Below, one piece after another: positions 1-14,511 of a stretch of 20,000 nucleotides of DNA. Positions within the stretch are counted from its first letter, which is position 1; every line of letters begins with the position of its first letter. The notes under the pieces were generated by a model. That model did not search any database. It had not been told where the DNA came from and saw nothing but the letters and a program-made list of their open reading frames with translations. The stretch is taken from IMG/VR virus record IMGVR_UViG_3300025120_000038; one strand, written 5' to 3'. Both the position numbers and the translations under genes were made by a program. The DNA comes from an uncultured virus (IMG/VR IMGVR_UViG_3300025120_000038) (taxonomy: Duplodnaviria > Heunggongvirae > Uroviricota > Caudoviricetes).

Positions 1-3000
1 ATTATCAAAAGGCGAAATGTAATATGCTACTCCCGCAGATGTACCCGCAGGCGTATTTAAACTTCCCGGATCAGCACCAAATGTAATAGGGGTCCATATT
101 AATGTTGGTTTTAAAGTTGCCGCCCCGGTAACTGTTATAGTTCCTGCGGTTGCTGTTGCCGGAACTGTAATTGGAATTTCATATTCAATATTATCTCCAT
201 TTTGAACTGCAACTGTTGTTCCAACATTTGTACTGGCAGGCATACCACTGGTATTAATTACAATATTATTATTGTCAATATAATAATTAGAAAAAGCCGA
301 TGCTACAAACTCCACTTTATTACCACCTACTGTATTAAATATTTGAGAAGCCGGAGTTATTGCTGAATTAGAAATAGTATCTATTGTGTTTACAGTTAAC
401 AAAGCAACAGTAAAAGCTAAATCAGCTCCGGTACCACTAATATCTAATGTTTGTATAGAATTAGAAGAACCAACTACATGGGACACTTGAAAAACCAATT
501 GCCCATCTGTAACTGCTACAGGTGATGTTATATTTAAATTACTTCCAGCTGCTTGCGTTAAAATAATTTCAGGTGGAGAAGGAATAGGGTCAGTAAATTT
601 AAATTGTGAATTTAATGGAGAAACAAATATGGCCCAAAAAATTTGATCTCCTTGTTTATTTATGCTCGTATTAGCCCCACTAAATATAGAATTAGCTGCT
701 GAACCTGATAATTGTAATGAAGTATTAAAAGTATCTGCTGTTGTAGGTATAGTTCCAATATTACCAATATCTGTTTCTATATATTCTAACTCCCACCCCT
801 CAGTACCTTCATAAGCTAAAGTGTTAAATTGTTTTACTAAAGATGGTGCGTCATTAAAAATAGGTATTACGTAAGATTCTTGAGTCGTAGAATTATAAAA
901 ATTGTTTCTAGTAACATTAGGACTATGATGCTGCCACAAGCTTCCTCCACTAAATGTATAATAAGTATTATTTAATGATAAACCTCCTTCTTGTTTAAAC
1001 CCTCTAAATGAGGTCCATCCGCCAGATCTATCATCAAAACATATTGTTAGATATCCTTGTGAGGCAGTAGCCGCATTTGTGTCACTATTTCCATCAAAAC
1101 CAGAGCCTATTAAAGTTAATTCATATAGTCTACTATATTCGTCGTAGGATCCTATAATTTGTGTAGAAGCTTTTAATGCATCTCTAAAAAAATCACCACA
1201 GCCAATTGTTGATATTTCTTGCAATTGACCTTGTACTAATCTTAGTACAACACCCCTATTACTATCCGTAAAATATTGTGAAAAGCCATAAGTTGCCCAA
1301 GATTGTGGGTTTTTAGCTATACCAAATTGACCGGCTAATGGTGCTATTGTACCTAAAAATTGTGTATTACTAGTAACTGGAACAGCTCCACCTTCTGCAG
1401 AATATATAAAATCTTTATCAATTGGTGATCTAGAAACTTTATCTTCTTGAAATATATTTATAGCAGTATCATCTGTAAATAACTTTTGTACAGAACCATC
1501 TTGAGGGTCTAAAGATATAGTTAAACCACCTTCCGATTCATTAAATTGATTTATATAATTTATACCAGTTCTTGAATTTAAAAATCCACTAGAATGTATT
1601 AATGTATTACCTCTTCTTTCTTCAGTAAAATTTTCTTGTACCACATAAGCTCTTACACCTACATCAAAAAATGGTTGATTAAAGCCTGCTTTAATTCTAT
1701 TAATTTCTATATGATAACCTGCTGTAAAAGTAAGTAATATACAATTAAAAAATTCTATATCAATTGCCGTTGCGGTTAGCTCAGATACTAATCCTCCAGT
1801 AGATGTTTCAAAAAATATATCTAATTCAGAACTAACAGGTTCTGTTTCATATACAGCTAAACCTGAACTAACTGCAGCTCCGCTATTATTAATTGTGGTA
1901 ACTAAAGCATCTCCTGATGGATTTGCAATAGACTGTACAGACGTTAATGCACCTGCAGTTGGCGAATAAACATTACTACCATCTACATACTTAGGATAAA
2001 CAGATACGTTACAAGGAGATATTGTTGCAGAAGTACTTGGTGGTATTGCTGCTGTTTGATCTCTAGGAATTTTATTTATACTATCTCCTAATCTTTCAAT
2101 GTTATTAGCACTTGTAATTACAGATATCCAATTATAATATTCTTGTTCTCTTTGCTTTACAACAACTCTATACGAATAAGCCCACTCAGGTATTTGCGTT
2201 AGATCAGCAAAAGCAATTCTTAATGCATTAAAAGCTGAAGTTGAACTAGCGTCTCCTGTGTTTGGTTCTACAAATACGGTATCTACTCCTGAGCTCGATA
2301 ATATTACAGGAGATTGTCTTCCAAATTTATCTGCTAAAACAATACCAACTTGATATGTACGTCTTGATTTTACAGATTGATTTTCTAAATTGGATGATAA
2401 TCTAGCAGATGTTTCTCCTGTTCTTGAAACAGTAAAAGCTATTTGTGGAATATCAAAATTTTGTAAAAAATTACCATAAACTAACCTACCTCCAGCTACA
2501 TCTTGAGCTTTAGCTTTTAATGGAACCGCATCATATACTCTTGTTAATTGATCAGGTGGTAATGTTCTAAAAGGGTCAGTTGATGAATAAGTAAAATTAA
2601 CAAAAGGCTCAGTAGTAACCTCAGAATCATTAACCACATACAATGTGCCCGAAATAGTATCTTTATAAATTAGCTCCACATTTTTAATACCATAACCTGT
2701 TGGAGTTGGTATTTGTAATTGTACTTGATTGATTGCATTAACAAATGTTTCTATTTCTCCAAAATTACCAATTGAAGTACTAATAGTATCAGGTTCATTT
2801 ATTCTAGAAAACAATATTGGGCTAAAAGGTGCTAAAGTACTATATTCATTATCTTCAAATTGCCATCTATATGAAAATCTTATTAGCTTGTCCTGCATAA
2901 AAGTTGAAGATATGCTTGATTCTTTTGTTGCAGCAACTAAAGTTGGTGCTTCATATGGAGCAAATTTACATACTGATATTAAATTATCAATATTAGAAGC

Positions 3001-3480
3001 AGAGGTATAATATGACACATTATTTCTAGCCGTAACTACATTAATTTTTCTTGGGTAATTTCTATTATCTGTCCAAAACAATAAATCATCTACAATATTA
3101 ATTCCAGTAATAGGATAATTTTGATGTAAATTTAATTGTTGAGAAACTATTAATGCTGTAGTTTGTTTAGTTTTTTGATCGTACTCAAAAAGCCCATGCT
3201 GCCCGGAATTTATTTCATTATAAGTACTATTATTAGTAACAAAAAAATATATTTTTTCAGTTCTACTATCACTAACCACTCCAATGCTTTTAGCATTAGC
3301 AATATTACAATTTGCTACTAATTCATTACCTAATAAATTTTCAATAGAACCTACATCAGACGCTTCTGATTGCCCAATATTAACATTGAATGCCTCTCGG
3401 TAATCACCCGCAGGTATTATTCTATCATCTAAATCACGGTTCATTTTACCGCCATTAAATATTCTTTTTATTTCTGGCAT
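1..3480 (-). CDS. Tail stabilisation/muzzle protein (crAss-like, P22 gp10-like), 3'-truncated by window edge, >=1160 aa
   Basis: Not in the ORF track, consistent with no stop before the window edge. ATG at 3480; spot translation gives MPEIKRIFNGGKMNRDLDDRIIPAGDYREAFNVNIGQSEASDVGSIENLLGNE. Internal motifs RVYDAVPLKAKAQDVAGGRLVYGNF, SVKSRRTYQVGIVLADKFGRQSPV, FQEDKVS, FGIAKNPQSWATYG..YFTDSNRGVVLRL match my recollection of this family. It follows the ring-protein genes, as in crAss-like synteny. Confidence 0.85.
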   Translation of the reverse strand, partial: MPEIKRIFNGGKMNRDLDDRIIPAGDYREAFNVNIGQSEASDVGSIENLLGNELVANCNIANAKSIGVVSDSRTEKIYFFVTNNSTYNEINSGQHGLFEYDQKTKQTTALIVSQQLNLHQNYPITGINIVDDLLFWTDNRNYPRKINVVTARNNVSYYTSASNIDNLISVCKFAPYEAPTLVAATKESSISSTFMQDKLIRFSYRWQFEDNEYSTLAPFSPILFSRINEPDTISTSIGNFGEIETFVNAINQVQLQIPTPTGYGIKNVELIYKDTISGTLYVVNDSEVTTEPFVNFTYSSTDPFRTLPPDQLTRVYDAVPLKAKAQDVAGGRLVYGNFLQNFDIPQIAFTVSRTGETSARLSSNLENQSVKSRRTYQVGIVLADKFGRQSPVILSSSGVDTVFVEPNTGDASSTSAFNALRIAFADLTQIPEWAYSYRVVVKQREQEYYNWISVITSANNIERLGDSINKIPRDQTAAIPPSTSATISPCNVSVYPKYVDGSNVYSPTAGALTSVQSIANPSGDALVTTINNSGAAVSSGLAVYETEPVSSELDIFFETSTGGLVSELTATAIDIEFFNCILLTFTAGYHIEINRIKAGFNQPFFDVGVRAYVVQENFTEERRGNTLIHSSGFLNSRTGINYINQFNESEGGLTISLDPQDGSVQKLFTDDTAINIFQEDKVSRSPIDKDFIYSAEGGAVPVTSNTQFLGTIAPLAGQFGIAKNPQSWATYGFSQYFTDSNRGVVLRLVQGQLQEISTIGCGDFFRDALKASTQIIGSYDEYSRLYELTLIGSGFDGNSDTNAATASQGYLTICFDDRSGGWTSFRGFKQEGGLSLNNTYYTFSGGSLWQHHSPNVTRNNFYNSTTQESYVIPIFNDAPSLVKQFNTLAYEGTEGWELEYIETDIGNIGTIPTTADTFNTSLQLSGSAANSIFSGANTSINKQGDQIFWAIFVSPLNSQFKFTDPIPSPPEIILTQAAGSNLNITSPVAVTDGQLVFQVSHVVGSSNSIQTLDISGTGADLAFTVALLTVNTIDTISNSAITPASQIFNTVGGNKVEFVASAFSNYYIDNNNIVINTSGMPASTNVGTTVAVQNGDNIEYEIPITVPATATAGTITVTGAATLKPTLIWTPITFGADPGSLNTPAGTSAGVAYYISPFDN

Positions 3481-6061: not shown

Positions 6062-7657
6062 TTAAGCTTTAAATAATACGAAATTATTAGCAGCTTGTGT
6101 GATAAGACATCTTTCACTTAAGTAATTGATGTTCATCTCATCGATATCAGAAGTAGGTGAACCAGTTCCAACAGATCCTGTAATCCAAGACTTGTTTTTT
6201 CTGTTTTCCGTTTCTGATGCTCTATACCTAATGTGCAAGAATGGTCTTTTAATGTTTTGACCTAATTGTTGGTCATAAACTGTAGAAGTACCAGCAGGTA
6301 CTAATACACCTTCAACATCTCCAAAACCACCTCTTGTTGACCAATCATTTAAATATTTCCAGTCAGTTTTATAGAAGTCATAAGAACCTCTTCTGTATCC
6401 TGTAAATCCTAAATTAAGGGCCATGTCAGAGCTGTTGTTAAATACACCATAAGATGTACCATGCGAGTGGTTAGCTGTTCCAGCATAATTACCATTTTGC
6501 ATTGCAAGAATGTCATCAATTTCTAAAGATAGTTCTCTATTTAAGAATAACATATTTTCTTCAATTGCTCCTTGCTTATCTAGTTGTTTAAGAACGTTGT
6601 CAAAGTCAGTTAATGCACCACCACCTGCTTGCGCAGCTGCTTGTCCACCAAATCCTGAATAAACATTTCCTCTTGCCTCTAGAGCTTCAAAGAAACCTTC
6701 AGTACCTCTTGCCCCTTGTGCGGCTAAGCTACCTCCAAAAGTTCCAAGTGTAATTGCAGCACCACCGGCTACTTTTTTCACACCTTCGACCATTGACATT
6801 TCCATGTGGTCTTCCCATCTAAGTCTTACTTCATGCTCAGATTTAATATACCATAAATATCCACTTGCTCCATTCTCAGAAGTAACTTCAATCCAACCAA
6901 TCTGAGCAGTGTCAGATCCATTAATTGAATAGTTTTCTTTTAAGATAATAGGCGCATTAGTAAACGTAGCATATCCTGGATCTAAGCTTTCAGTAAAGTT
7001 TCCAGTACCTTTAGCAAATTCAGACCCATAAGCAATAGCAGTTACTCTATCTGCAGCACCAATAGCGCCGTGAGGAGCATATGCTTGAATTTGGAACATT
7101 TGTCCACCTGTAGTTGCACCAGCACCTGCACCAACGTTAGTACAAACTCCTTTTATTACAGCACCAGTTCCACCAACAGCAGAAGTTGCAGTTGTTTGAA
7201 TCTGAACCATTACAGTTTGGCCGATTTTAAAGTTTACTTGTGATGTTTGTGTAGCAGGACTAACCCCTAAACTTGAGGGTTGTGCAGCGGGTACTTCAAA
7301 ATTAAGTACCGCACCAGATGCAGCGCCAGCTCCAATAGCTGCTTGTCCACCTCCAGCGGCAGGCATTACGCCCGCGTTACCTCTTGGTATTACGTTTGCG
7401 TATCTAGTATGTAATCTTCCTTGCTCAGTCCAGATAATTTGATCTGAAGTGGAAGGCATCTCAGCAGAAACCATACGAAGGAAAGAACCAATAGATCTGT
7501 TTCCATATCTTTCGACTTCTTTTTCGTATACGTCTGGTAAAAATTGTTGTGTCCATTGATCAAAAGCCGCAGCTGTGAAATCAATGTAGTTCCCAGAGTA
7601 AAGTGTTTTAGTCTGGGTTGGTTGTAAAGCGGCGGGTACGCCAGCAGTAAAAGCCAT
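6062..7657 (-). CDS. Major capsid protein (HK97 fold, crAss-like)
   Basis: 531 aa. Motifs QQFLPDVYEKEVERYGNRSIGSFLRMVSAEMP..SDQIIWTEQGRLH, YGSEFAKG, INGSDTAQIGWIEV, GYLWY, GFTGYRRGSYDFYKTDWKYLND, RPFLHIRYR, LSERCL. Follows portal and scaffold. Confidence 0.92.
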   Translation of the reverse strand: MAFTAGVPAALQPTQTKTLYSGNYIDFTAAAFDQWTQQFLPDVYEKEVERYGNRSIGSFLRMVSAEMPSTSDQIIWTEQGRLHTRYANVIPRGNAGVMPAAGGGQAAIGAGAASGAVLNFEVPAAQPSSLGVSPATQTSQVNFKIGQTVMVQIQTTATSAVGGTGAVIKGVCTNVGAGAGATTGGQMFQIQAYAPHGAIGAADRVTAIAYGSEFAKGTGNFTESLDPGYATFTNAPIILKENYSINGSDTAQIGWIEVTSENGASGYLWYIKSEHEVRLRWEDHMEMSMVEGVKKVAGGAAITLGTFGGSLAAQGARGTEGFFEALEARGNVYSGFGGQAAAQAGGGALTDFDNVLKQLDKQGAIEENMLFLNRELSLEIDDILAMQNGNYAGTANHSHGTSYGVFNNSSDMALNLGFTGYRRGSYDFYKTDWKYLNDWSTRGGFGDVEGVLVPAGTSTVYDQQLGQNIKRPFLHIRYRASETENRKNKSWITGSVGTGSPTSDIDEMNINYLSERCLITQAANNFVLFKA

Positions 7658-7677: not shown

Positions 7678-9000
7678 TTATTTATTCCATTTAATGCGCA
7701 ACTTGTCGGAAGAATTCCCAGATACTACTCTAATCGTATCACCTGAATTTGTAGTTACAGATGAACCATCAGCTCTTGGATCCATATTAATATTTTTAGC
7801 TTTCTTTGCGGATTGTTTTATAGCGTCGGCACGGCCTTGCTCATAAAAGTGATTCGCAATTTTATCTGCATTCTGTGCAGTAAATAAAGCTTTATGATAT
7901 TTATTTAAATCTGTTAAGTTACCTTTGTTATCAGAGTATTGATTTAAAAAATTATTAATATCTGATTGAAACTCTTTTGTTTTTTTAGGATTTTCTATTT
8001 TAAATCTATATTTGTTTTCTCCAACCTTAAAATCAAAACCTTTGAAATCATTGTTAAAAACATCGTTAGTTTTATTTAAAAAATTTTCCTTTAATTTAGT
8101 TTCTTCTTTCGATAATTGCTGTTGATTATTATAATACTCTAAAGCTTTTGCGTATTTTGGATCAATATCTTTTTCTTTTCTTAACTTAAGATCAGTATAA
8201 TATTGGTCTTTTACTTTTTTAAAAGTTTTTTGAGCATTAAATAATTCTTCTTTAAAAGCTAATTGCTTAGCTTTAATATCGGACGGATCGTCCAATTCTT
8301 TATCGTAAGCAAAGTTTTTATCCATTAAAAAAGTAATATCTTCTTTGTCTAGATGAGGTTTAGTAAATTCATAATATTCTTTTAATAAAGTAATATTATC
8401 AATTTTGTCTAAGTCTCTATTAAGTTTTGCATAGTCTTCTACAGTTCCCCCTGTGTCTTCTATAAACTTAATTAATTTACCTACGTCTTCAGGTAGCTCT
8501 TGTGTTTTTGCTTCCTGTAATATTTTTTCAGGTTCCGGTGCGGGCTCGGCACTTTTAGTGCTTGGTTCCACTCCCACCTTGTTAGTTGTATCTTCTTCAT
8601 CATTTACTAATTCTAAAGGAGATTCAGTGGTTTCTTTATTTTCTTCTAAAGTTATTTCTTGCTTAACTTCTTCAGCGTTTTCGGGGGTTTCCCGTACTTC
8701 TGATCCCACGCTTGACAATCCCACTTCGGATCGTTCATCGCGTAACACTTCCTCCTTTGTTTCTGGCTCTTGAACGGCATCTGTTTTTTCTTGTTTAAGT
8801 TCTTCTGTTTTTTGTTCTTTAACAGGGGGTTTGTCTAAATTAACTTTATAGACTCCATCTTCTTGGAGTCCATACTCTTTAGCAACCTCGCCTTTTTCAA
8901 CTGCCTGTTCTAAAACTGCAGCTTCTTTTTCTTGAGGTGATTTAGGAGTTTCAGTATCAACTGATCTTACTTCCACTTTTTCTTCAACTTGGTTTTCCAT
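7678..9000 (-). CDS. Putative capsid scaffolding protein (acidic, disordered N-terminal half)
   Basis: 440 aa located between portal and MCP. E/K-rich N-terminus; conserved-looking F.EDTGGTVEDY.KLN, FKGFDFKVGE and IANHFYEQGRADAIK...KNINM motifs. Confidence 0.75.
   Translation of the reverse strand: MENQVEEKVEVRSVDTETPKSPQEKEAAVLEQAVEKGEVAKEYGLQEDGVYKVNLDKPPVKEQKTEELKQEKTDAVQEPETKEEVLRDERSEVGLSSVGSEVRETPENAEEVKQEITLEENKETTESPLELVNDEEDTTNKVGVEPSTKSAEPAPEPEKILQEAKTQELPEDVGKLIKFIEDTGGTVEDYAKLNRDLDKIDNITLLKEYYEFTKPHLDKEDITFLMDKNFAYDKELDDPSDIKAKQLAFKEELFNAQKTFKKVKDQYYTDLKLRKEKDIDPKYAKALEYYNNQQQLSKEETKLKENFLNKTNDVFNNDFKGFDFKVGENKYRFKIENPKKTKEFQSDINNFLNQYSDNKGNLTDLNKYHKALFTAQNADKIANHFYEQGRADAIKQSAKKAKNINMDPRADGSSVTTNSGDTIRVVSGNSSDKLRIKWNK
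8481..8603 (-). CDS. Candidate nested gene (+1 frame in scaffold): 40-aa basic ArfA-like peptide MMKKIQLTRWEWNQALKVPSPHRNLKKYYRKQKHKSYLKT
   Basis: Hand translation from ATG 8603 to TAG 8481. Coincides with a local GC island (31/60 G+C at 8521-8580). Ends in an RNxKKYxRKxKHK motif recalled from small phage/bacterial ArfA-like peptides. Confidence 0.6.
   Translation of the reverse strand: MMKKIQLTRWEWNQALKVPSPHRNLKKYYRKQKHKSYLKT
8652..8780 (-). CDS. Candidate nested gene (+1 frame in scaffold): 42-aa peptide MPFKSQKQRRKCYAMNDPKWDCQAWDQKYGKPPKTLKKLSKK
   Basis: Hand translation from ATG 8780 to TAA 8652. A-rich leader ACTTAAACAAGAAAAAACAG; GC island (30/60 at 8701-8760). N-terminus resembles the widespread MPFKSxxQRR small phage protein family (recall). 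Confidence 0.65.
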   Translation of the reverse strand: MPFKSQKQRRKCYAMNDPKWDCQAWDQKYGKPPKTLKKLSKK

Positions 9001-9031: not shown

Positions 9032-11476
9032 TTATGATGATTCGAATCTGCCCATGTCAAATCCACCTAAAGTATCATTACCTTTAGATTCAAAATCTTT
9101 TACAGGTTTATCTGTATTAGGTGCTCCACTTATTTTCCCTGAAGGTACTTTAGTTTCTTCCCTGATTTCTTCTCGCTGGAGCATTGATGCGTTATTAGTT
9201 TGTGCTAACTCCATTCTAGATTTTAACTCTAGTTCTTTTAATTGTACATTTAAATTAAATTCGTATTGCATGAGCTCTTTTTTAGCTCTAGTTTCTAATT
9301 CCATCTTCTTTATTTCCATTTCATTTTCCGCTGTGGATAATTGAATTTTAGAAGTTGTTTTTATTTGTTCAGCATCAGCTTTTGCAGATTCCATTGCAAT
9401 TTGTGCTTCTCCTTGTGCCTTAGCTTGGGCTGCACTTGCTGCCTGTGCCTGCGCTTGATCTGATTGTTGTTTAGCTAATCTTCTAAATTTAAGTAATTGA
9501 TTAGCTAGTTTTATATTTTTAACTTCTCTAATATCAATCGCATCTTCTAAAAATATATTTTCTTTTGATAAAGCCATTTGTATATTACTTTCTAATATAG
9601 CTTTTTCATCTGCATCAGGTTCAAGTTCTAAAAATATACCAAAATCATGCAAATTAAGATTTTTAACTTCCTCTAATGACCCTACTGAAAATTGTCCTAG
9701 TGCATCTATCAGAGCTTCTTTAGTTGGATGAAATTCTAACACATCTTTAAACCTTAAAGAAATAGCTTCAGCTAAACTAGTAGTAATAAACATACTACTA
9801 TATAATATATGTCTTGTAGCAACATTACTATTTGCAGCTGCTAATTTTTGCACACCCACTAATGAATTTGGATCAGGATCAGAACCATCTCTAGCTTCAT
9901 TTAGTCCAGTTACATCTCTAATCATTTGAATATATTGATTGTATGCACCAACTAATACTTGTATTTGTTGACCACCACTTCCTGGTAATTCAGTAATTGG
10001 GACTTTACCTGGATTAGGATCTCCTTCTACATTTAGCGATCTACCTATAATAGATCCCGTCTGGAAGTACATATTTAATGCTTCTTGAGGGTTATAATTA
10101 TTTCCGTTACCTAAATCTATTTCAGCTAAGCCATCAGCATCTAAATAAACACCTGAGGGTGTCATTCTTTGTATAGCTTGTTGTAATTTTAAATGTGTTA
10201 ATTGAATTAGATCTGCATAAGGAGTCATTTTAGCAACAAGAGAATTAATACTCCCTTTATATATTCTTGGAGCGCTTGCAATATAATTCATCATTACTTT
10301 ATTTATATTTGCGCTAGGCCTAACCATGTTATCAGCTTTTTTCCACTTTAATAATTCCTGTGTACCTAAAACTAATACTCCCTCATATACAACTTCTCTC
10401 GTTTGTTTTACTTTTTCAAATCTTGTATTTTCATCTACAGGTGGATCAAAAGTGTCGTCTTTTTCAATTGCTTTTTTAGCACCTGTTGATACTTCTTTTA
10501 TTTTATATACGTCATGTTCCCATGTTTTCCAATTAAAATATAACAACGTAACCGTATTGTTTTGGGATAATGAATCATTTAAATAATAATCTTGAGGATT
10601 ATAAGTATTATATACATTCCAATTAGAACCTTTTTTAGTCATAGATTCTATTTGTTCATTTGTTAAATTAGGGAATTCTTTTTTTAACTCGTTAATATTT
10701 ATATTTTTAACTTCTCCAAAATAATAACAATCTGTAAAATTAGGGTCTTCTGTATAGGACCATACTAAGTTAGCAGGATCAACATATTCTACGGTTACAC
10801 CATCAGTATTATTAAACCCATGCTTAGCACACCCAATACCAATTGTAGCTAAGTCGTAATCAATACGCTTTTTAGCGTCGTCGTATTTATTACATTTAAA
10901 AATATTTTCAATTGCTTGTTCTTCCGCTTGTTCTATACCTTGCTTGTAATTAAGTTGCATATATAATTCAAGCTCTTCTGTGTTTGCTGGCAAATCATTA
11001 ACAGCAAAATTTCTAGCTGAAACTCCTAACTTTTTTTCAATATTTAAAAGCAAATCTGCTGTGTTTAAATCTTGCTGAACATCATTAACAAACTTAGTTC
11101 TTTTACCTGTTGATATGTTATCTTGACCAACAGCTTTTATTGTAAAAGTTCTATCTTGCATTCCGTTTACTACAATATCAATAAATTTTGGTATTATAGG
11201 TACAGGTTTCCAGTCTAAATTTAAATAAGATAAATCACCATTAATTGCAAATTCATCTTTATATTTACGAATAGATTGTTCTCCCCTTGCATATAATCTT
11301 AATCGGTGACATTCTTGACGAGAATTATAAAACTTTCCGACACCATTATTGTCTTTGTTAAACCACTCTTGCTCAATTGCTTTAGCTACAGATAATCCAT
11401 ATTCTACTGTGATTTTAATGGAATCTGAAACTGCCTGTGTAGGAAAGGCGTAACTTTGCATTTTATTTTTTGCCAT
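9032..11476 (-). CDS. Portal protein (crAss-like)
   Basis: 814 aa directly downstream of terL. Motifs LRLYARGEQSIRKYKDE..INGDLSYLNLDWKPVPIIPKFIDIVVNG, QLTHLKLQQ, MIRDVTGLNEARDG, LVGVQKLAAANSN; coiled-coil C-terminal barrel. Confidence 0.92.
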   Translation of the reverse strand: MAKNKMQSYAFPTQAVSDSIKITVEYGLSVAKAIEQEWFNKDNNGVGKFYNSRQECHRLRLYARGEQSIRKYKDEFAINGDLSYLNLDWKPVPIIPKFIDIVVNGMQDRTFTIKAVGQDNISTGKRTKFVNDVQQDLNTADLLLNIEKKLGVSARNFAVNDLPANTEELELYMQLNYKQGIEQAEEQAIENIFKCNKYDDAKKRIDYDLATIGIGCAKHGFNNTDGVTVEYVDPANLVWSYTEDPNFTDCYYFGEVKNININELKKEFPNLTNEQIESMTKKGSNWNVYNTYNPQDYYLNDSLSQNNTVTLLYFNWKTWEHDVYKIKEVSTGAKKAIEKDDTFDPPVDENTRFEKVKQTREVVYEGVLVLGTQELLKWKKADNMVRPSANINKVMMNYIASAPRIYKGSINSLVAKMTPYADLIQLTHLKLQQAIQRMTPSGVYLDADGLAEIDLGNGNNYNPQEALNMYFQTGSIIGRSLNVEGDPNPGKVPITELPGSGGQQIQVLVGAYNQYIQMIRDVTGLNEARDGSDPDPNSLVGVQKLAAANSNVATRHILYSSMFITTSLAEAISLRFKDVLEFHPTKEALIDALGQFSVGSLEEVKNLNLHDFGIFLELEPDADEKAILESNIQMALSKENIFLEDAIDIREVKNIKLANQLLKFRRLAKQQSDQAQAQAASAAQAKAQGEAQIAMESAKADAEQIKTTSKIQLSTAENEMEIKKMELETRAKKELMQYEFNLNVQLKELELKSRMELAQTNNASMLQREEIREETKVPSGKISGAPNTDKPVKDFESKGNDTLGGFDMGRFESS

Positions 11477-11478
11477 AT

Positions 11479-13713
11479 TTATTTTATTATCTCACTTCTT
11501 GATCCTTCGTTTCTATATTTTGATAGTTGAAAAGGAACTTTTGTAACTGTTTTTTCCGCTCTAGGACGGTATAAATGTTTTCGACAAGCCATTATAGCTA
11601 GGCCGCTGCTTATTGAAGCATCATGGGCTGTTCTACGAGATATATCAAAACGTGCCCAATCTTCAAGGGTTCTTTGGAAAAACATGTTTCCATTGTTTTC
11701 ACCAATTTTACCCACATATTCTTCAATATAAGATTCAATAGCAGAGGCATGGGCTTGCTTAATGTCTTCTGAAGAGTTAGGTATACCTCCTAATTCTAAT
11801 TCTGTTTTAGATAAGTTACCAACTAATTTATCAGGTCTATTCATAGAATAACCTCTATACCCTCTTCTTTTAAAATGATATAGTAATCTTGGTTTGTTAT
11901 TTTCCGCTAATAAAGGCATTCCATAAAATATACAAGCCATTAATACATCTTCAAAAAATATTTCAGCTGTTTGTGGCCTTGCTATATATTCTAAAAAAAA
12001 CTTACTATTTGGTACATCACTAACCATTGAAAATGTAGTTAACCCGTGTAAAGAACCATTTGATCCTCTACCACCTACTGTACCTGATATATCGTAAGGA
12101 TCACAGCCAAATGCACCCAACCCGTTATTAGCCGGATATTTTAATGTGTTTTTTATAACAATACTATTTTGCATAAGTGTTGGAGGAATCCACGATATTC
12201 TAAATCTACCATTAGCATTAGGTGTCCATATAACTTTTGTATCTTTAATGCCGTTTGCCCATCCAAAAGAGCCTTTTGATATATGCCCTTTCATTACCAT
12301 TTCTTCATTAAAATCTATTTGCTCATAAATTTTAGTTAAGTTAAATAATGAATTTAAAGTTTCATCTCTGAAAGCGTGTTTTTCAGATCTTGGAAATTGT
12401 CTATAATATTCATTTAAAGCATCAGAATCTTTTTTTAATCCTTCAACTTCATTTTCCCAGTGTTCAATGACCCCCGTATAGATGAGTTCACCATCAATTC
12501 CCTCAGCCGGTTTTGGTGGTGTATCGAATACAGGGTACCCATACTTATCGATAAATCCTTCGAAGCCCCATTCCATAGGAAGGAACAAAGCATATAATCC
12601 ACTTGTAGTCTGGCCATTGCGATTTCTATTTTCGACATTTGAATTATTATATAATTTTTTAAAGTTATCTCCTCCTTTTGCTAATGCATTAGAAGTAGAT
12701 CCCATCATACATTTGCCTACTATTTTTGAACCGAGCCTGAGACACGTTTTTGTGACCCTCCAGTTGTTGAGGATGTTGTCGGGCCTTTCCCATTTGCCCG
12801 ATTCATCATGGACGAGGAGTTGTAACTTTTCCCCATCATATGAATTGTCCCCGGTATTCTTCCAGTCGATTGTTGTATCGAGCCCCTTTGCCATTCCTTC
12901 ATCTTCCGTTTGTGTTTCTCGAATGGAATTTCTGGTAAGTCTTCTTGAGGGTATCTTATAGGAGAGCTCGGTTTTGGGGCGCTCCATACCGTCTTGAATT
13001 GGCTTGAAGAAGAATGGGTAGTTGATGGAGATTGGTACCACCTTGTCTGTAAACATCTTCTTCGCATCTGCTCCAGTCTTTGATAATATCCCAAACCTAG
13101 AGTCTTTTGAAGTTGTAGCCTGGTTGACGCACTCGGATGATGCCATAAAACTAAATCCAGACCTCCTGTTTTTAAGGTAGCACATTCCATAAGACCTGGA
13201 ATCTGCCTTGCAAGCCTCCCAGAAGTAGTAAAATATTCTATTTGCTTGTCTAAAGTCGGGTGACCCCACGTCGATCTTAGTCCAGTTGAGGTATATATAG
13301 TGTGATCCTGTAATGTAACACGGGGTACCGTTGCACATGAACCAGTAACCATCATTACGATAATTAAATTCATCGTCAATGTATTGGTAATATTCCTCTT
13401 TATTTTTTTCTGGATGCTTAGTGAAATCATATATGCTTTTTATTTTGTTTAGTGAATTAGGCTTTAATCTTTTTTTAAAATATTGATTTTCTTTTTTAAG
13501 GTCTTGACCTTCAATTATTTGAGGAATTTTAGGTAAACCTACCTTGAGACCTTGAATTTCATATATTTCTCCTAATGTACCATCTTTACTTATAATAACA
13601 CAATCTAATTCTTTATTGTAACCATATTTAAATTTTTTATGCTTATTAAAGTTTTTAACTGATCTATCATTAAGATGCTCATCGTATATATGATATAAAT
13701 TTTGTTTATACAT
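11479..13713 (-). CDS. terL: Terminase large subunit
   Basis: 744 aa. Walker A-like YLKNRRSGFS, Walker B LLVHDESGKW, coupling motif MGSTSN, RNase H-like nuclease motifs GCDPYD, LAENN, HDASISSG. Confidence 0.95.
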   Translation of the reverse strand: MYKQNLYHIYDEHLNDRSVKNFNKHKKFKYGYNKELDCVIISKDGTLGEIYEIQGLKVGLPKIPQIIEGQDLKKENQYFKKRLKPNSLNKIKSIYDFTKHPEKNKEEYYQYIDDEFNYRNDGYWFMCNGTPCYITGSHYIYLNWTKIDVGSPDFRQANRIFYYFWEACKADSRSYGMCYLKNRRSGFSFMASSECVNQATTSKDSRFGILSKTGADAKKMFTDKVVPISINYPFFFKPIQDGMERPKTELSYKIPSRRLTRNSIRETQTEDEGMAKGLDTTIDWKNTGDNSYDGEKLQLLVHDESGKWERPDNILNNWRVTKTCLRLGSKIVGKCMMGSTSNALAKGGDNFKKLYNNSNVENRNRNGQTTSGLYALFLPMEWGFEGFIDKYGYPVFDTPPKPAEGIDGELIYTGVIEHWENEVEGLKKDSDALNEYYRQFPRSEKHAFRDETLNSLFNLTKIYEQIDFNEEMVMKGHISKGSFGWANGIKDTKVIWTPNANGRFRISWIPPTLMQNSIVIKNTLKYPANNGLGAFGCDPYDISGTVGGRGSNGSLHGLTTFSMVSDVPNSKFFLEYIARPQTAEIFFEDVLMACIFYGMPLLAENNKPRLLYHFKRRGYRGYSMNRPDKLVGNLSKTELELGGIPNSSEDIKQAHASAIESYIEEYVGKIGENNGNMFFQRTLEDWARFDISRRTAHDASISSGLAIMACRKHLYRPRAEKTVTKVPFQLSKYRNEGSRSEIIK
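12435..12638 (-). CDS. Candidate nested ORF in +1 frame of terL (67 aa), function unknown
   Basis: ORF track entry in the same +1 frame as 12720..13430. Overlaps a GC island (30/60 at 12481-12540 vs 10/60 at 12301-12360). Confidence 0.3.
   Translation of the reverse strand: MSKIEIAMARLQVDYMLCSFLWNGASKDLSISMGTLYSIHHQNRLRELMVNSSIRGSLNTGKMKLKD
12720..13430 (-). CDS. Candidate nested ORF in +1 frame of terL (236 aa) with possible lipoprotein signal peptide
   Basis: 236 stop-free codons in an AT-rich genome. terL uses CTC/GTC/ATC/GGC-type codons here (29/60 G+C at 12781-12840 vs 10/60 at 13441-13500). N-terminus KKIKR...LTMNLIIVMMVTGS-C, with the Cys codon at 13337-13335. Confidence 0.5.
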   Translation of the reverse strand: MISLSIQKKIKRNITNTLTMNLIIVMMVTGSCATVPRVTLQDHTIYTSTGLRSTWGHPTLDKQIEYFTTSGRLARQIPGLMECATLKTGGLDLVLWHHPSASTRLQLQKTLGLGYYQRLEQMRRRCLQTRWYQSPSTTHSSSSQFKTVWSAPKPSSPIRYPQEDLPEIPFEKHKRKMKEWQRGSIQQSTGRIPGTIHMMGKSYNSSSMMNRANGKGPTTSSTTGGSQKRVSGSVQK

Positions 13714-13958
13714 TATTTTATACGATTTTCAACACCTAGAAAAGTTTTCTTTTCTTTGTTATTATTTTTTTTTTCAGAAAGTTCTTCAATTTTTTCTATT
13801 ATTTTTAAAGAATCTTCTATAGCAACCCATTTTGCTTGTGCTGCCATCTTAGCTTTTTCAGGATCAAGTTCAACTAAATCTATAGTTTGTCTAATTACTT
13901 TGTCTAATTCAACTAATGCTTTTTCAGCTGCTGAAATTACTCTTTTCCTTCGGTCCAT
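13713..13958 (-). CDS. Putative terminase small subunit
   Basis: 81-aa helical protein directly upstream of terL and coupled to it (TAATG at 13713). Assignment by position only. Confidence 0.5.
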   Translation of the reverse strand: MDRRKRVISAAEKALVELDKVIRQTIDLVELDPEKAKMAAQAKWVAIEDSLKIIEKIEELSEKKNNNKEKKTFLGVENRIK

Positions 13959-14511
13959 AGTTGATTGTTATTTGATTTGATAAAATACGATATAATTTTT
14001 GACCTTCAATATTAAATTCATATTCAGAATTAGGCGTAAACCCCACCACATTGCCTTTAGATACTCCTAAACGCGTTAATTCTTCATTTGAGTATATTAG
14101 CTCCCCATAAAGATTTATGTCCGTATAAAGGCTCCATTCATCATTTCTAAATACTGGCTTTACAAAACAATATCCCGGTAATGCTTTCCATTCATTTTCT
14201 TTTTTGTATCCAAATATTTGATCAGATGATACTATAAATTTATTTTCATCTATAAAACCGGCGGAATTTCTTTCATTGTTTCCTTGATCAAGCCATTTTC
14301 TAAATACATTATGATGTACAATAACTTGATCTCCTTCTTTTATAGTGGTTTTTTGGTTAGCTGGTGTTTTAATTACCGTGCCAATACGATTTACATAATG
14401 ATAATCTCTTTCGGTAATTTCTGTATTAACAATTAATTCTTTATTGTTTATATTAATTTTATTGTTATAACGATTTTCAGTAGATATGATATAGTCAAAT
14501 AATGATTGCAT
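13924..14511 (-). CDS. GroES/Cpn10-like co-chaperonin, apparently two tandem GroES-like domains
   Basis: 195 aa. Half 1: SLFDYIIS...IGTVIKTP....IKEGDQVIV. Half 2: ALPGYCFVKP...GELIYSN....GVSKGNVVGF...EYEFNIEGQKLYRILSNQI. Both echo the GroES pattern G.V.....V..GD.V.F....G..Y.I. Confidence 0.6.
   Translation of the reverse strand: MQSLFDYIISTENRYNNKININNKELIVNTEITERDYHYVNRIGTVIKTPANQKTTIKEGDQVIVHHNVFRKWLDQGNNERNSAGFIDENKFIVSSDQIFGYKKENEWKALPGYCFVKPVFRNDEWSLYTDINLYGELIYSNEELTRLGVSKGNVVGFTPNSEYEFNIEGQKLYRILSNQITINYGPKEKSNFSS

Follow-up and report, generated by a model that had tools for sequence, protein, structure and literature searches.

Does a head gene of a marine phage carry a second, complete protein-coding gene out of frame, and if so, what would its product do? 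This question is raised by a 20,000-nucleotide stretch of an uncultured virus of the class Caudoviricetes (IMG/VR record IMGVR_UViG_3300025120_000038), referred to here as the window. A gene at 7678-9000 on the minus strand, which we call the host gene, encodes a 440-amino-acid (aa) protein and lies in the scaffold position, between the portal and major-capsid-like genes. Within it, on the same strand and in its +1 frame, an open reading frame (ORF) of 40 codons plus TAG spans 8481..8603; we designated this frame ORF-B (translation MMKKIQLTRWEWNQALKVPSPHRNLKKYYRKQKHKSYLKT, followed by the stop). An initial annotation, made from the letters alone, had proposed a hidden ArfA-like, ribosome-rescue-type peptide overprinted inside a capsid scaffold gene, and the ORF is exactly as it stated in position, frame, and length. 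The product is a basic peptide with the family pattern LTxxEWxxALKxPxPxRNKKKYxRKxKHK; an AlphaFold2 (AF2) model gives it a short helix at residues 9-15 and extended ends (predicted local distance difference test [pLDDT] score of 78). Because this frame is under selection of its own, has a conserved start and stop, and has free-standing homologues, we consider ORF-B very probably a genuine protein-coding gene, nested +1 in the predicted disordered acidic linker of the host gene.

The first alternative is that there is no gene here and that a Glu-rich frame simply reads as a Lys-rich one a base later, leaving an accidental open frame. We kept the host protein constant over host aa 60-182 and generated 2000 codon resamplings and 2000 synonymous permutations. 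An ATG-started +1 ORF of at least 40 codons appeared in 25% of the resamplings and 36% of the permutations, which favors an accident, and the length of ORF-B is uninformative as evidence for a gene. The content of the frame favors a gene instead: the window +1 frame scored 65.3 bits on a hidden Markov model (HMM) built only from seven verified free-standing homologues, whereas the best randomized +1 frames scored 39.4 and 41.2 bits in the two sets, and none of the 4000 randomizations reached the observed score.

The base counts of the initial annotation are exact (31 of 60 bases are G or C at 8521-8580 and 12 of 60 at 8341-8400), and the ORF-B interval has a GC content of 44.7%, against 33.9% for the window. 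However, this jump is as much a dip in the neighboring sequence as a rise in the ORF, because the C-terminal folded half of the host gene (7840-8440) is unusually AT-rich (GC of 0.18-0.28 in 120-base windows, versus 0.34-0.48 in the linker). The accompanying claim that the host frame uses rare codons over this interval holds for GCC, CCC, and CCG (each 6% within their amino acid in the main genes of the window) and for GAG (16%), but not for GCA (40%).

Homologues were identified with a profile of eight nested peptides, which was searched against 1.84 billion representative proteins. Fifty proteins matched at an E value of ≤1e-3, 13 of them at ≤1e-10, with a best value of 9.4e-14. These matches are 33-110 aa long, share the consensus MKKIxLTQHEWYDALKVPTPHRNKKKYYRKEKHK, and align end to end from Met1; the window peptide aligns over its full length with free-standing members at 48-64% identity. 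Small standalone phage ORFs ending in NKKKYxRKxKHK, which the initial annotation had cited, do exist.

We also scanned IMG/VR with the family alignment. At least 600 stretches matched and at least 336 were confirmed; the best 80 were analyzed, and the peptide was present in all 80. Among these best 80 loci, 71 copies are nested in a same-strand ORF of at least 150 aa, 7 are free-standing tiny genes, and 2 lie at contig ends. Every nested copy is in the +1 frame and starts with ATG (71/71 for each), and BLASTP (E ≤ 1e-5) identifies all 71 surrounding ORFs as homologues of the window 440-aa gene. In 36 of the 71, the ORF-B-type gene lies at host aa 19-62, unlike its position in the window. The free-standing copies adjoin DNA ligase, SSB, UvsX-like, HNH, and nucleotidase genes in unrelated phage types. 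Standalone homologues, proposed by the initial annotation as a check on the gene, were thus recovered both by the profile search (50 proteins) and in IMG/VR.

The ORF-B family is essentially viral, almost exclusively so: a scan of 185,579 species genomes returned only 13 loci, all on contigs of metagenome-assembled genomes and 7 of them in Bacteroidota bins. In PHROGs, all eight nested peptides matched the 42-position family phrog_6310 weakly over the core (best E, 0.0018); the window peptide matched its profile positions 12-33 with an E value of 0.029. A tblastn search of 50,697 GenBank phage records with the window peptide and a free-standing homologue gave no match at E ≤ 1, although matches may have been masked by the low-complexity filter, and a word-indexed protein search with the ORF-B peptide and with the peptide of a second nested frame, ORF-A (described below), gave no candidates, the peptides being too short for the index for this to count as evidence of absence. 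Gene-calling programs drop ORFs contained within longer ones, which leaves this family, found in hundreds of IMG/VR contigs, mostly unannotated in its nested form.

Among 78 related IMG/VR loci with host identities from 97% down to 36%, which comprise 73 unique host genes including that of the window, ORF-B is intact in 9, representing four lineages; it is intact at the window position in the window, L001, L034-L037, L039, and L041. In most of the remaining 64, stop codons interrupt it or it can no longer be recognized, so that the conservation of the +1 ATG and stop, put forward by the initial annotation as a further check, holds within four lineages and fails in most other close relatives. 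Many of the decayed copies retain only a remnant of the tail (..KKYYRKK..), and L003 retains an open, ATG-started frame with an unrelated middle. The cultured elemo phages and MW202828 carry neither ORF-B nor ORF-A, and ORF-B is dispensable. Neither these phages nor the GenBank phage records searched above yielded a cultured carrier. A host gene of 38% identity (L071) encodes a clearly homologous peptide, LTTREWLEAMKVPTPHRNKKKYSRKPKHK, elsewhere along its length. The selection figures given next are pairwise and neither tree-corrected nor phylogenetically independent, and the IMG/VR loci that they include were picked by peptide similarity.

Where the gene is retained, the substitution pattern is that of a coding sequence read in the peptide frame. 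We compared a 29-codon core between the four lineages and counted differences by peptide-frame codon position, obtaining 8/4/15 for the window and L039 and 6/8/13 for L034 and L071. Between lineages, the proportions of nonsynonymous (pN) and synonymous (pS) differences in the peptide frame are ~0.2 and 0.5-0.9 (pN/pS, ~0.25), whereas the corresponding host-frame values are 0.26-0.39 and 0.06-0.31 (pN/pS, >1). A second comparison used 74 unique nested cores and 9 copies that are not nested (the 7 verified free-standing genes and the 2 at contig ends). On average, pairs of nested copies differ by 0.251/0.176/0.417 at peptide-frame positions 1/2/3 and pairs of the nine others by 0.209/0.108/0.469, and mean amino acid identity among the 74 nested cores is 0.70 in the peptide frame versus 0.42 in the host frame. 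Read as sequence evidence, this ordering of variability (third position above first above second) indicates that purifying selection acts in the peptide frame. An antisense 106-aa ORF (8453-8773, plus strand) was considered as the cause of the odd codon-position pattern and rejected; since its third positions fall on those of the host frame and not on the variable first positions, it seems to be a side effect of codon bias in the host gene.

An accidental frame could still draw on the loss of ORF-B from most close relatives and on its C-terminal motif, which mirrors a conserved host motif. Specifically, the C-terminal KYYRKQKHKSYLKT and its stop are the +1 reading of the host motif EKILQEAKTQELPEDV, and 8481..8525 (minus strand), where the ORF-B tail KKYYRKQKHKSYLKT and its stop run over this motif where the folded host domain begins, is a doubly constrained stretch. 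The initial annotation had cautioned that Glu-rich host frames automatically give Lys-rich +1 frames, and this caution is justified to the extent that the tail mirrors the host motif here. It does not extend further: the basic tail is also kept at L071, in the 36 differently placed loci, and in the free-standing copies, and the host motif cannot account for its conservation in those places. Against an accident stand, in addition, the codon-position pattern and pN/pS, the existence of homologues (E of 9e-14 among 1.84 billion proteins), and the occurrence of the gene at differing host-gene positions. We judge an accidental frame most improbable and consider it refuted as far as sequence evidence reaches.

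An AF2 model of the host protein, built with 32 homologues, has a short structured N terminus, a disordered segment at aa 57-166, and a helical C-terminal domain, the same architecture (conserved N terminus, disordered acidic linker, helical C-terminal domain) that describes the host protein as a whole. The predicted linker (8503..8832, minus strand; pLDDT, <50) holds most of ORF-B and all of ORF-A, as the initial annotation had envisaged for ORF-B; from about aa 170, at the start of the folded domain, pLDDT exceeds 80. In the host-frame alignment, the linker is variable and rich in indels. A shift of one base toward the 5' end turns Lys codons (AAR) into Glu or Lys codons and never into stops, which would explain why the host frame stays open and acidic across the nested gene and how a tolerant acidic linker can read through it.

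Could the peptide be made not from its own start but as a transframe product, with the N terminus of the head protein fused to it by ribosomal frameshifting? Three of the 50 profile matches (P0007, P0043, and P0048) read from a host-like N terminus in frame into an ORF-B-type peptide, and A-rich runs are frequent in the region. All three fusions lie on short metagenome contigs, where they may reflect indel errors, variants that are in frame, or true transframe products. In the window, the ORF-B frame is bounded by three +1-frame stops directly 5' of its ATG (TAG at 8613-8615, TAG at 8607-8609, and TAA at 8604-8606; together 8604..8615, minus strand), which are encoded within the conserved host motif SPLELV and exclude a long transframe fusion from upstream. 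The stretch of open peptide frame ahead of the ATG is short in the 71 nested loci, a few codons and never more than 24, and this ATG, present in all 71, is Met1 of the free-standing homologues, which argues that ORF-B starts there. We regard a transframe product as very unlikely. Independent internal initiation appears to be the best reading of the upstream stops, the short open frame before the ATG, and the Met1 alignment. The sequence upstream of the ATG is A-rich and has no Shine-Dalgarno motif, as is the case for the main genes of the window; with 43% A across the region in any case, this similarity carries little weight.

The free-standing homologues also bear on how the gene arose. If overprinting is taken to mean birth de novo within the scaffold gene, that part of the initial annotation is unlikely to be right, because homologues stand alone in unrelated phages. 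Together with the varying positions in the host gene, these relatives suggest that ORF-B was most likely captured, as an existing gene, into a tolerant linker rather than born there.

What, then, might the peptide do? Comparison with known families inclines us slightly toward a remote homology between the ORF-B family and the ArfA/DUF7230 group, mainly through the tail. A bridge is provided by a 51-aa "ArfA" protein of Pseudoalteromonas phage J2-1 (MF988720.1, ATN93434.1). It passes the Pfam gathering cutoffs of both PF03889 (ArfA; 41.3 bits, cutoff of 25.5) and DUF7230 (PF23876; 28.6 bits, cutoff of 27), and hhalign pairs it with the ORF-B family at 84% probability (P of 7e-6, 35 columns). 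Its end, ...RDKTKYRRKKKHKN, lacks GKGS and resembles the family RNKKKYxRKxKHK; unlike the ORF-B family, it has an ArfA-type N-terminal half. DUF7230 is also matched below its cutoff by 2 of the 8 nested peptides (L071 at 19.1 bits and L034 at 16.7 bits) and by 17 of 30 free-standing peptides (11.8-22 bits); the family matches are all sub-threshold, and the window peptide gave no match to DUF7230. One neighbor cluster in the ESM Atlas is DUF7230 (0.90). In a local test, 114 family peptides averaged 7.0 bits on an ArfA HMM, versus 0.7 bits for 2280 composition-matched shuffles, and 57% of the family exceeded the 99th percentile of the shuffles.

The peptide and ArfA also share general features. 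The active form of ArfA is ~47-55 aa long and the ORF-B peptide is 40 aa; both carry a basic tail, Y-x-R-K-x-K-H, after Lys-rich residues; and each is largely extended apart from a single short helix, a shape that is compatible with a relationship and not diagnostic of one. The E. coli ArfA motif given by the initial annotation is correct (EKNKKGKGSYMRKGKH in arfA of NC_000913.3), and the window tail Y-Y-R-K-Q-K-H-K aligns with S-Y-M-R-K-G-K-H of ArfA.

Other results count against kinship with ArfA. PF03889 was matched (E ≤ 10) by none of 8 nested peptides, none of 30 free-standing peptides, and not by the window peptide, while E. coli ArfA scored 89.5 bits as a positive control; a PDB profile search with the ORF-B family likewise returned no chain, ArfA included, at E ≤ 10. 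By hhalign, the family reached probabilities of 5.8% against E. coli ArfA, 5.4% against 14 enterobacterial ArfA sequences, and 33% (P of 4.5e-4) against 12 diverse ArfA sequences. The alignments to ArfA span only 20-23 columns of the basic tail, and those to the E. coli and enterobacterial proteins pair only PHRNLKKYYRKQKHK with NKKGKGSYMRKGKH. The G-K-G-S loop is missing in all 40 aligned family members, which makes the tail ~8 residues shorter than that of ArfA, and the N-terminal half of ArfA that recruits RF2 does not align with LTxxEWxxALKxPxP. When the J2-1 protein was left out of the ArfA HMM, the family mean fell to 3.2 bits against 0.4 for the shuffles, with 24% above the 99th percentile; the window peptide itself scored 2.1 and 1.2 bits on the two HMMs, below the 95th percentile of the shuffles. 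Convergence is possible because the tail is of low complexity. In addition, ArfA is reported only from some beta- and gamma-proteobacteria (PMC8012679), whereas the likely bacterial hosts of the phages with ORF-B are Bacteroidota. The same source describes a hairpin and RNase III arrangement by which arfA gives a nonstop mRNA; the ORF-B gene ends at an ordinary stop codon. The "ArfA-like" label of the initial annotation therefore survives in part, through the J2-1 bridge and the sub-threshold DUF7230 matches, and not through PF03889 or direct alignment to ArfA, where a match is absent or weak.

The C terminus of ArfA sits in the mRNA entry channel, according to PMC8012679. In the mechanism that we propose, the ORF-B family would be a remote, shortened relative of ArfA/DUF7230 whose tail (Y-x-R-K-x-K-H-K), basic and extended, would bind ribosomes stalled on broken mRNAs by way of the vacant mRNA entry channel in their 30S subunit, and the ribosomes so freed could go on to make phage proteins late in infection. 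The likely bacterial hosts, Bacteroidota, would place such a factor in a phylum beyond the reported range of ArfA. ArfA-like ribosome rescue is a tentative assignment of function, to which we give rather less than an even chance; the complete account, joining a real nested gene, an ArfA relationship, and a rescue role, is our best explanation and is likewise held tentatively. BrfA and ArfT, described in PMC6881298 and PMC6299226 as small, release-factor-dependent rescue factors of bacteria without an ArfA homologue, would be functional analogues; they are bacterial and chromosomal, whereas ORF-B is viral and nested.

Two other functions fit a real nested gene. The peptide could be a general nucleic acid binder with no role at the ribosome, for example in neutralizing the charge of packaged DNA, as an internal head protein, or as a regulator acting on RNA or DNA. 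It is extremely basic and mostly extended, its gene lies in a head assembly module next to portal and capsid genes, the resemblance to ArfA is confined to the low-complexity tail, and the window peptide does no better than shuffles on the ArfA HMM. However, the free-standing copies sit among genes for replication and nucleotide metabolism and not in head modules, the conserved nonbasic half LTxxEWxxALKxPxP argues for a specific partner, and the J2-1 protein ties the family to both ArfA and DUF7230; we consider a general binder possible but doubtful. Alternatively, the peptide could enter the mRNA channel and inhibit or reprogram translation, as in host shutoff or hibernation. In favor are the same tail resemblance to ArfA, the failure of the RF2-recruiting half of ArfA to align, and the position of Bacteroidota outside the range reported for ArfA (PMC8012679). 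Yet an inhibitor expressed late, from within a head gene, would strike the phage's own peak of translation unless the effect were selective, and we think such a role unlikely. Should the ArfA-like reading, which we prefer, be true, ribosome-rescue or ribosome-targeting microproteins would reach phages of a phylum outside the ArfA range and would constitute a new class of phage translation takeover factors.

ArfA genes are themselves carried by phages. PMC12753301 reports a PF03889 domain in gp30 of pelagiphage HTVC027P, and 17 records of the phage collection contained ArfA-like ORFs by tblastn with the E. coli protein; all eight of the phage ArfA ORFs examined pass PF03889, at 25.7-72.2 bits. 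These genes are often misnamed or without annotation. PF03889-passing ORFs that are misnamed, unannotated, or placed under an opposite-strand "hypothetical protein" occur in Salmonella phage Arash, Pseudomonas phage pf16, Ralstonia phage RsoM2USA, and Caulobacter phage Cr30 (L160, L161, L166, and L167, respectively), the one in Arash being annotated as "ribosomal protein L2." In Roseobacter phage CRP-212 (L163, MZ892988.1), the region encoding the acidic C-terminal tail of gp38 (1203 aa) contains, in its +1 frame, an unannotated 41-aa ORF (189-311) that passes Pfam ArfA at 33.3 bits. The nesting pattern is that of ORF-B, but the nested product is a bona fide ArfA.

These arrangements suggest a codon-level reason why basic microprotein genes fit acidic linkers. 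Marine phages, probably of Bacteroidota, may hide a miniature ArfA-type factor within the acidic linker region of a head gene, often alongside another microprotein gene, and the one-base shift between Lys and Glu codons (AAR/GAR) may make acidic disordered linkers natural landing pads for genes of basic microproteins, which would amount to a general rule on where nested genes can reside; we offer this broader proposal as a speculative one, more doubtful than the account of ORF-B itself. Such nesting is seen again with the ArfA ORF in the acidic tail of CRP-212 gp38.

ArfA genes in phages are known, as are nested phage genes; our literature searches returned no description of the ORF-B nested arrangement or of DUF7230. 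In phage lambda, Rz1 lies inside Rz. As in that pair, ORF-B is a complete small gene inside a longer one on the same strand and in the +1 frame, and nested, separate, and absent arrangements occur among related phages. Unlike Rz1, the ORF-B product is a basic cytoplasmic peptide and not a lipoprotein, it has no evident functional pairing with its host gene, and here two different genes are nested in one linker. The locus is a clean, testable example of two complete out-of-frame genes in the disordered linker of a double-stranded DNA phage structural gene.

The second of these genes, ORF-A, has 42 codons in the same +1 frame (8652..8780, minus strand; translation MPFKSQKQRRKCYAMNDPKWDCQAWDQKYGKPPKTLKKLSKK, pattern MPFKS.KQRR.., beginning MPFKSQKQRRKCYAMNDPKWDCQAWDQKYG). 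It occurs at the same alignment column in 67 of the 73 unique host genes, more widely than ORF-B, and is lacking in two 5'-truncated contigs, in L071, and in three distant genes. Residues M1, P2, Q8, and P18 are invariant among 28 diverse members, and there are subtypes with paired cysteines. Host-frame variability over ORF-A is 0.448 at first and 0.437 at third positions; in the two host-only flanks, the values for positions 1/2/3 are 0.336/0.242/0.452 and 0.294/0.200/0.435. ORF-A also accompanies ORF-B in 35 of the 71 host genes that carry ORF-B among the best 80 IMG/VR loci.

An alignment of an ORF-A subfamily matched at least 555 confirmed stretches in IMG/VR, of which the best 80 were analyzed. 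Among these 80, 23 are nested in the +1 frame, 22 of them in homologues of the window host gene, and the other 57 either stand alone as small ORFs or supply the N-terminal domain of a longer protein (150-800 aa). Nine of the 28 ORF-A members matched phrog_1375 weakly, and a PDB sequence-profile search with ORF-A gave only a chance eL32 row (E of 0.82). An ORF-A-type domain is fused in frame to a long acidic protein of 348 aa in L216, and L207 has one nested +1 at aa 782 within an ORF of 1649 aa unrelated by homology to the window host gene. The families bS21 and DUF3008, considered as possible relatives of the two nested peptides, were set aside when neither peptide matched them in Pfam.

The window as a whole is a structural block of a crAss-like marine phage in which all long ORFs are on the minus strand. 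The host gene lies between the portal gene (9032-11476; phrog_6547, E of 1e-128) and a virion structural gene in the capsid position (6062-7657; phrog_13704). Its designation as a scaffold gene in the initial annotation agrees with this position but is a label drawn from position and shape with no family or fold match behind it: the 440-aa protein has no PHROG or Pfam match, its AF2 model has no PDB fold match at E ≤ 0.001, and a DNA search of the gene against the 50,697 GenBank phage records matched nothing. The BFVD matches of the model are uncharacterized proteins of Cellulophaga phages and crAss-like phages, and in GenBank the closest relatives, aligning over aa 159-439 only and at 35% identity, are annotated as "structural proteins" in Flavobacterium elemo phages. 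One host-gene homologue (L067) is 580 aa long instead of the usual ~413 and extends far beyond the normal stop. Elsewhere on the minus strand of the window are the large terminase gene (TerL; 11479-13713; phrog_6681, E of 1e-169) and a gene for a crAss muzzle-like protein (1-3480; PF25731). A 195-aa protein encoded at 13924-14511 (minus strand) matches phrog_13932, "co-chaperonin GroES," with an E value of 5e-25 and Pfam Cpn10 weakly (E of 0.027).

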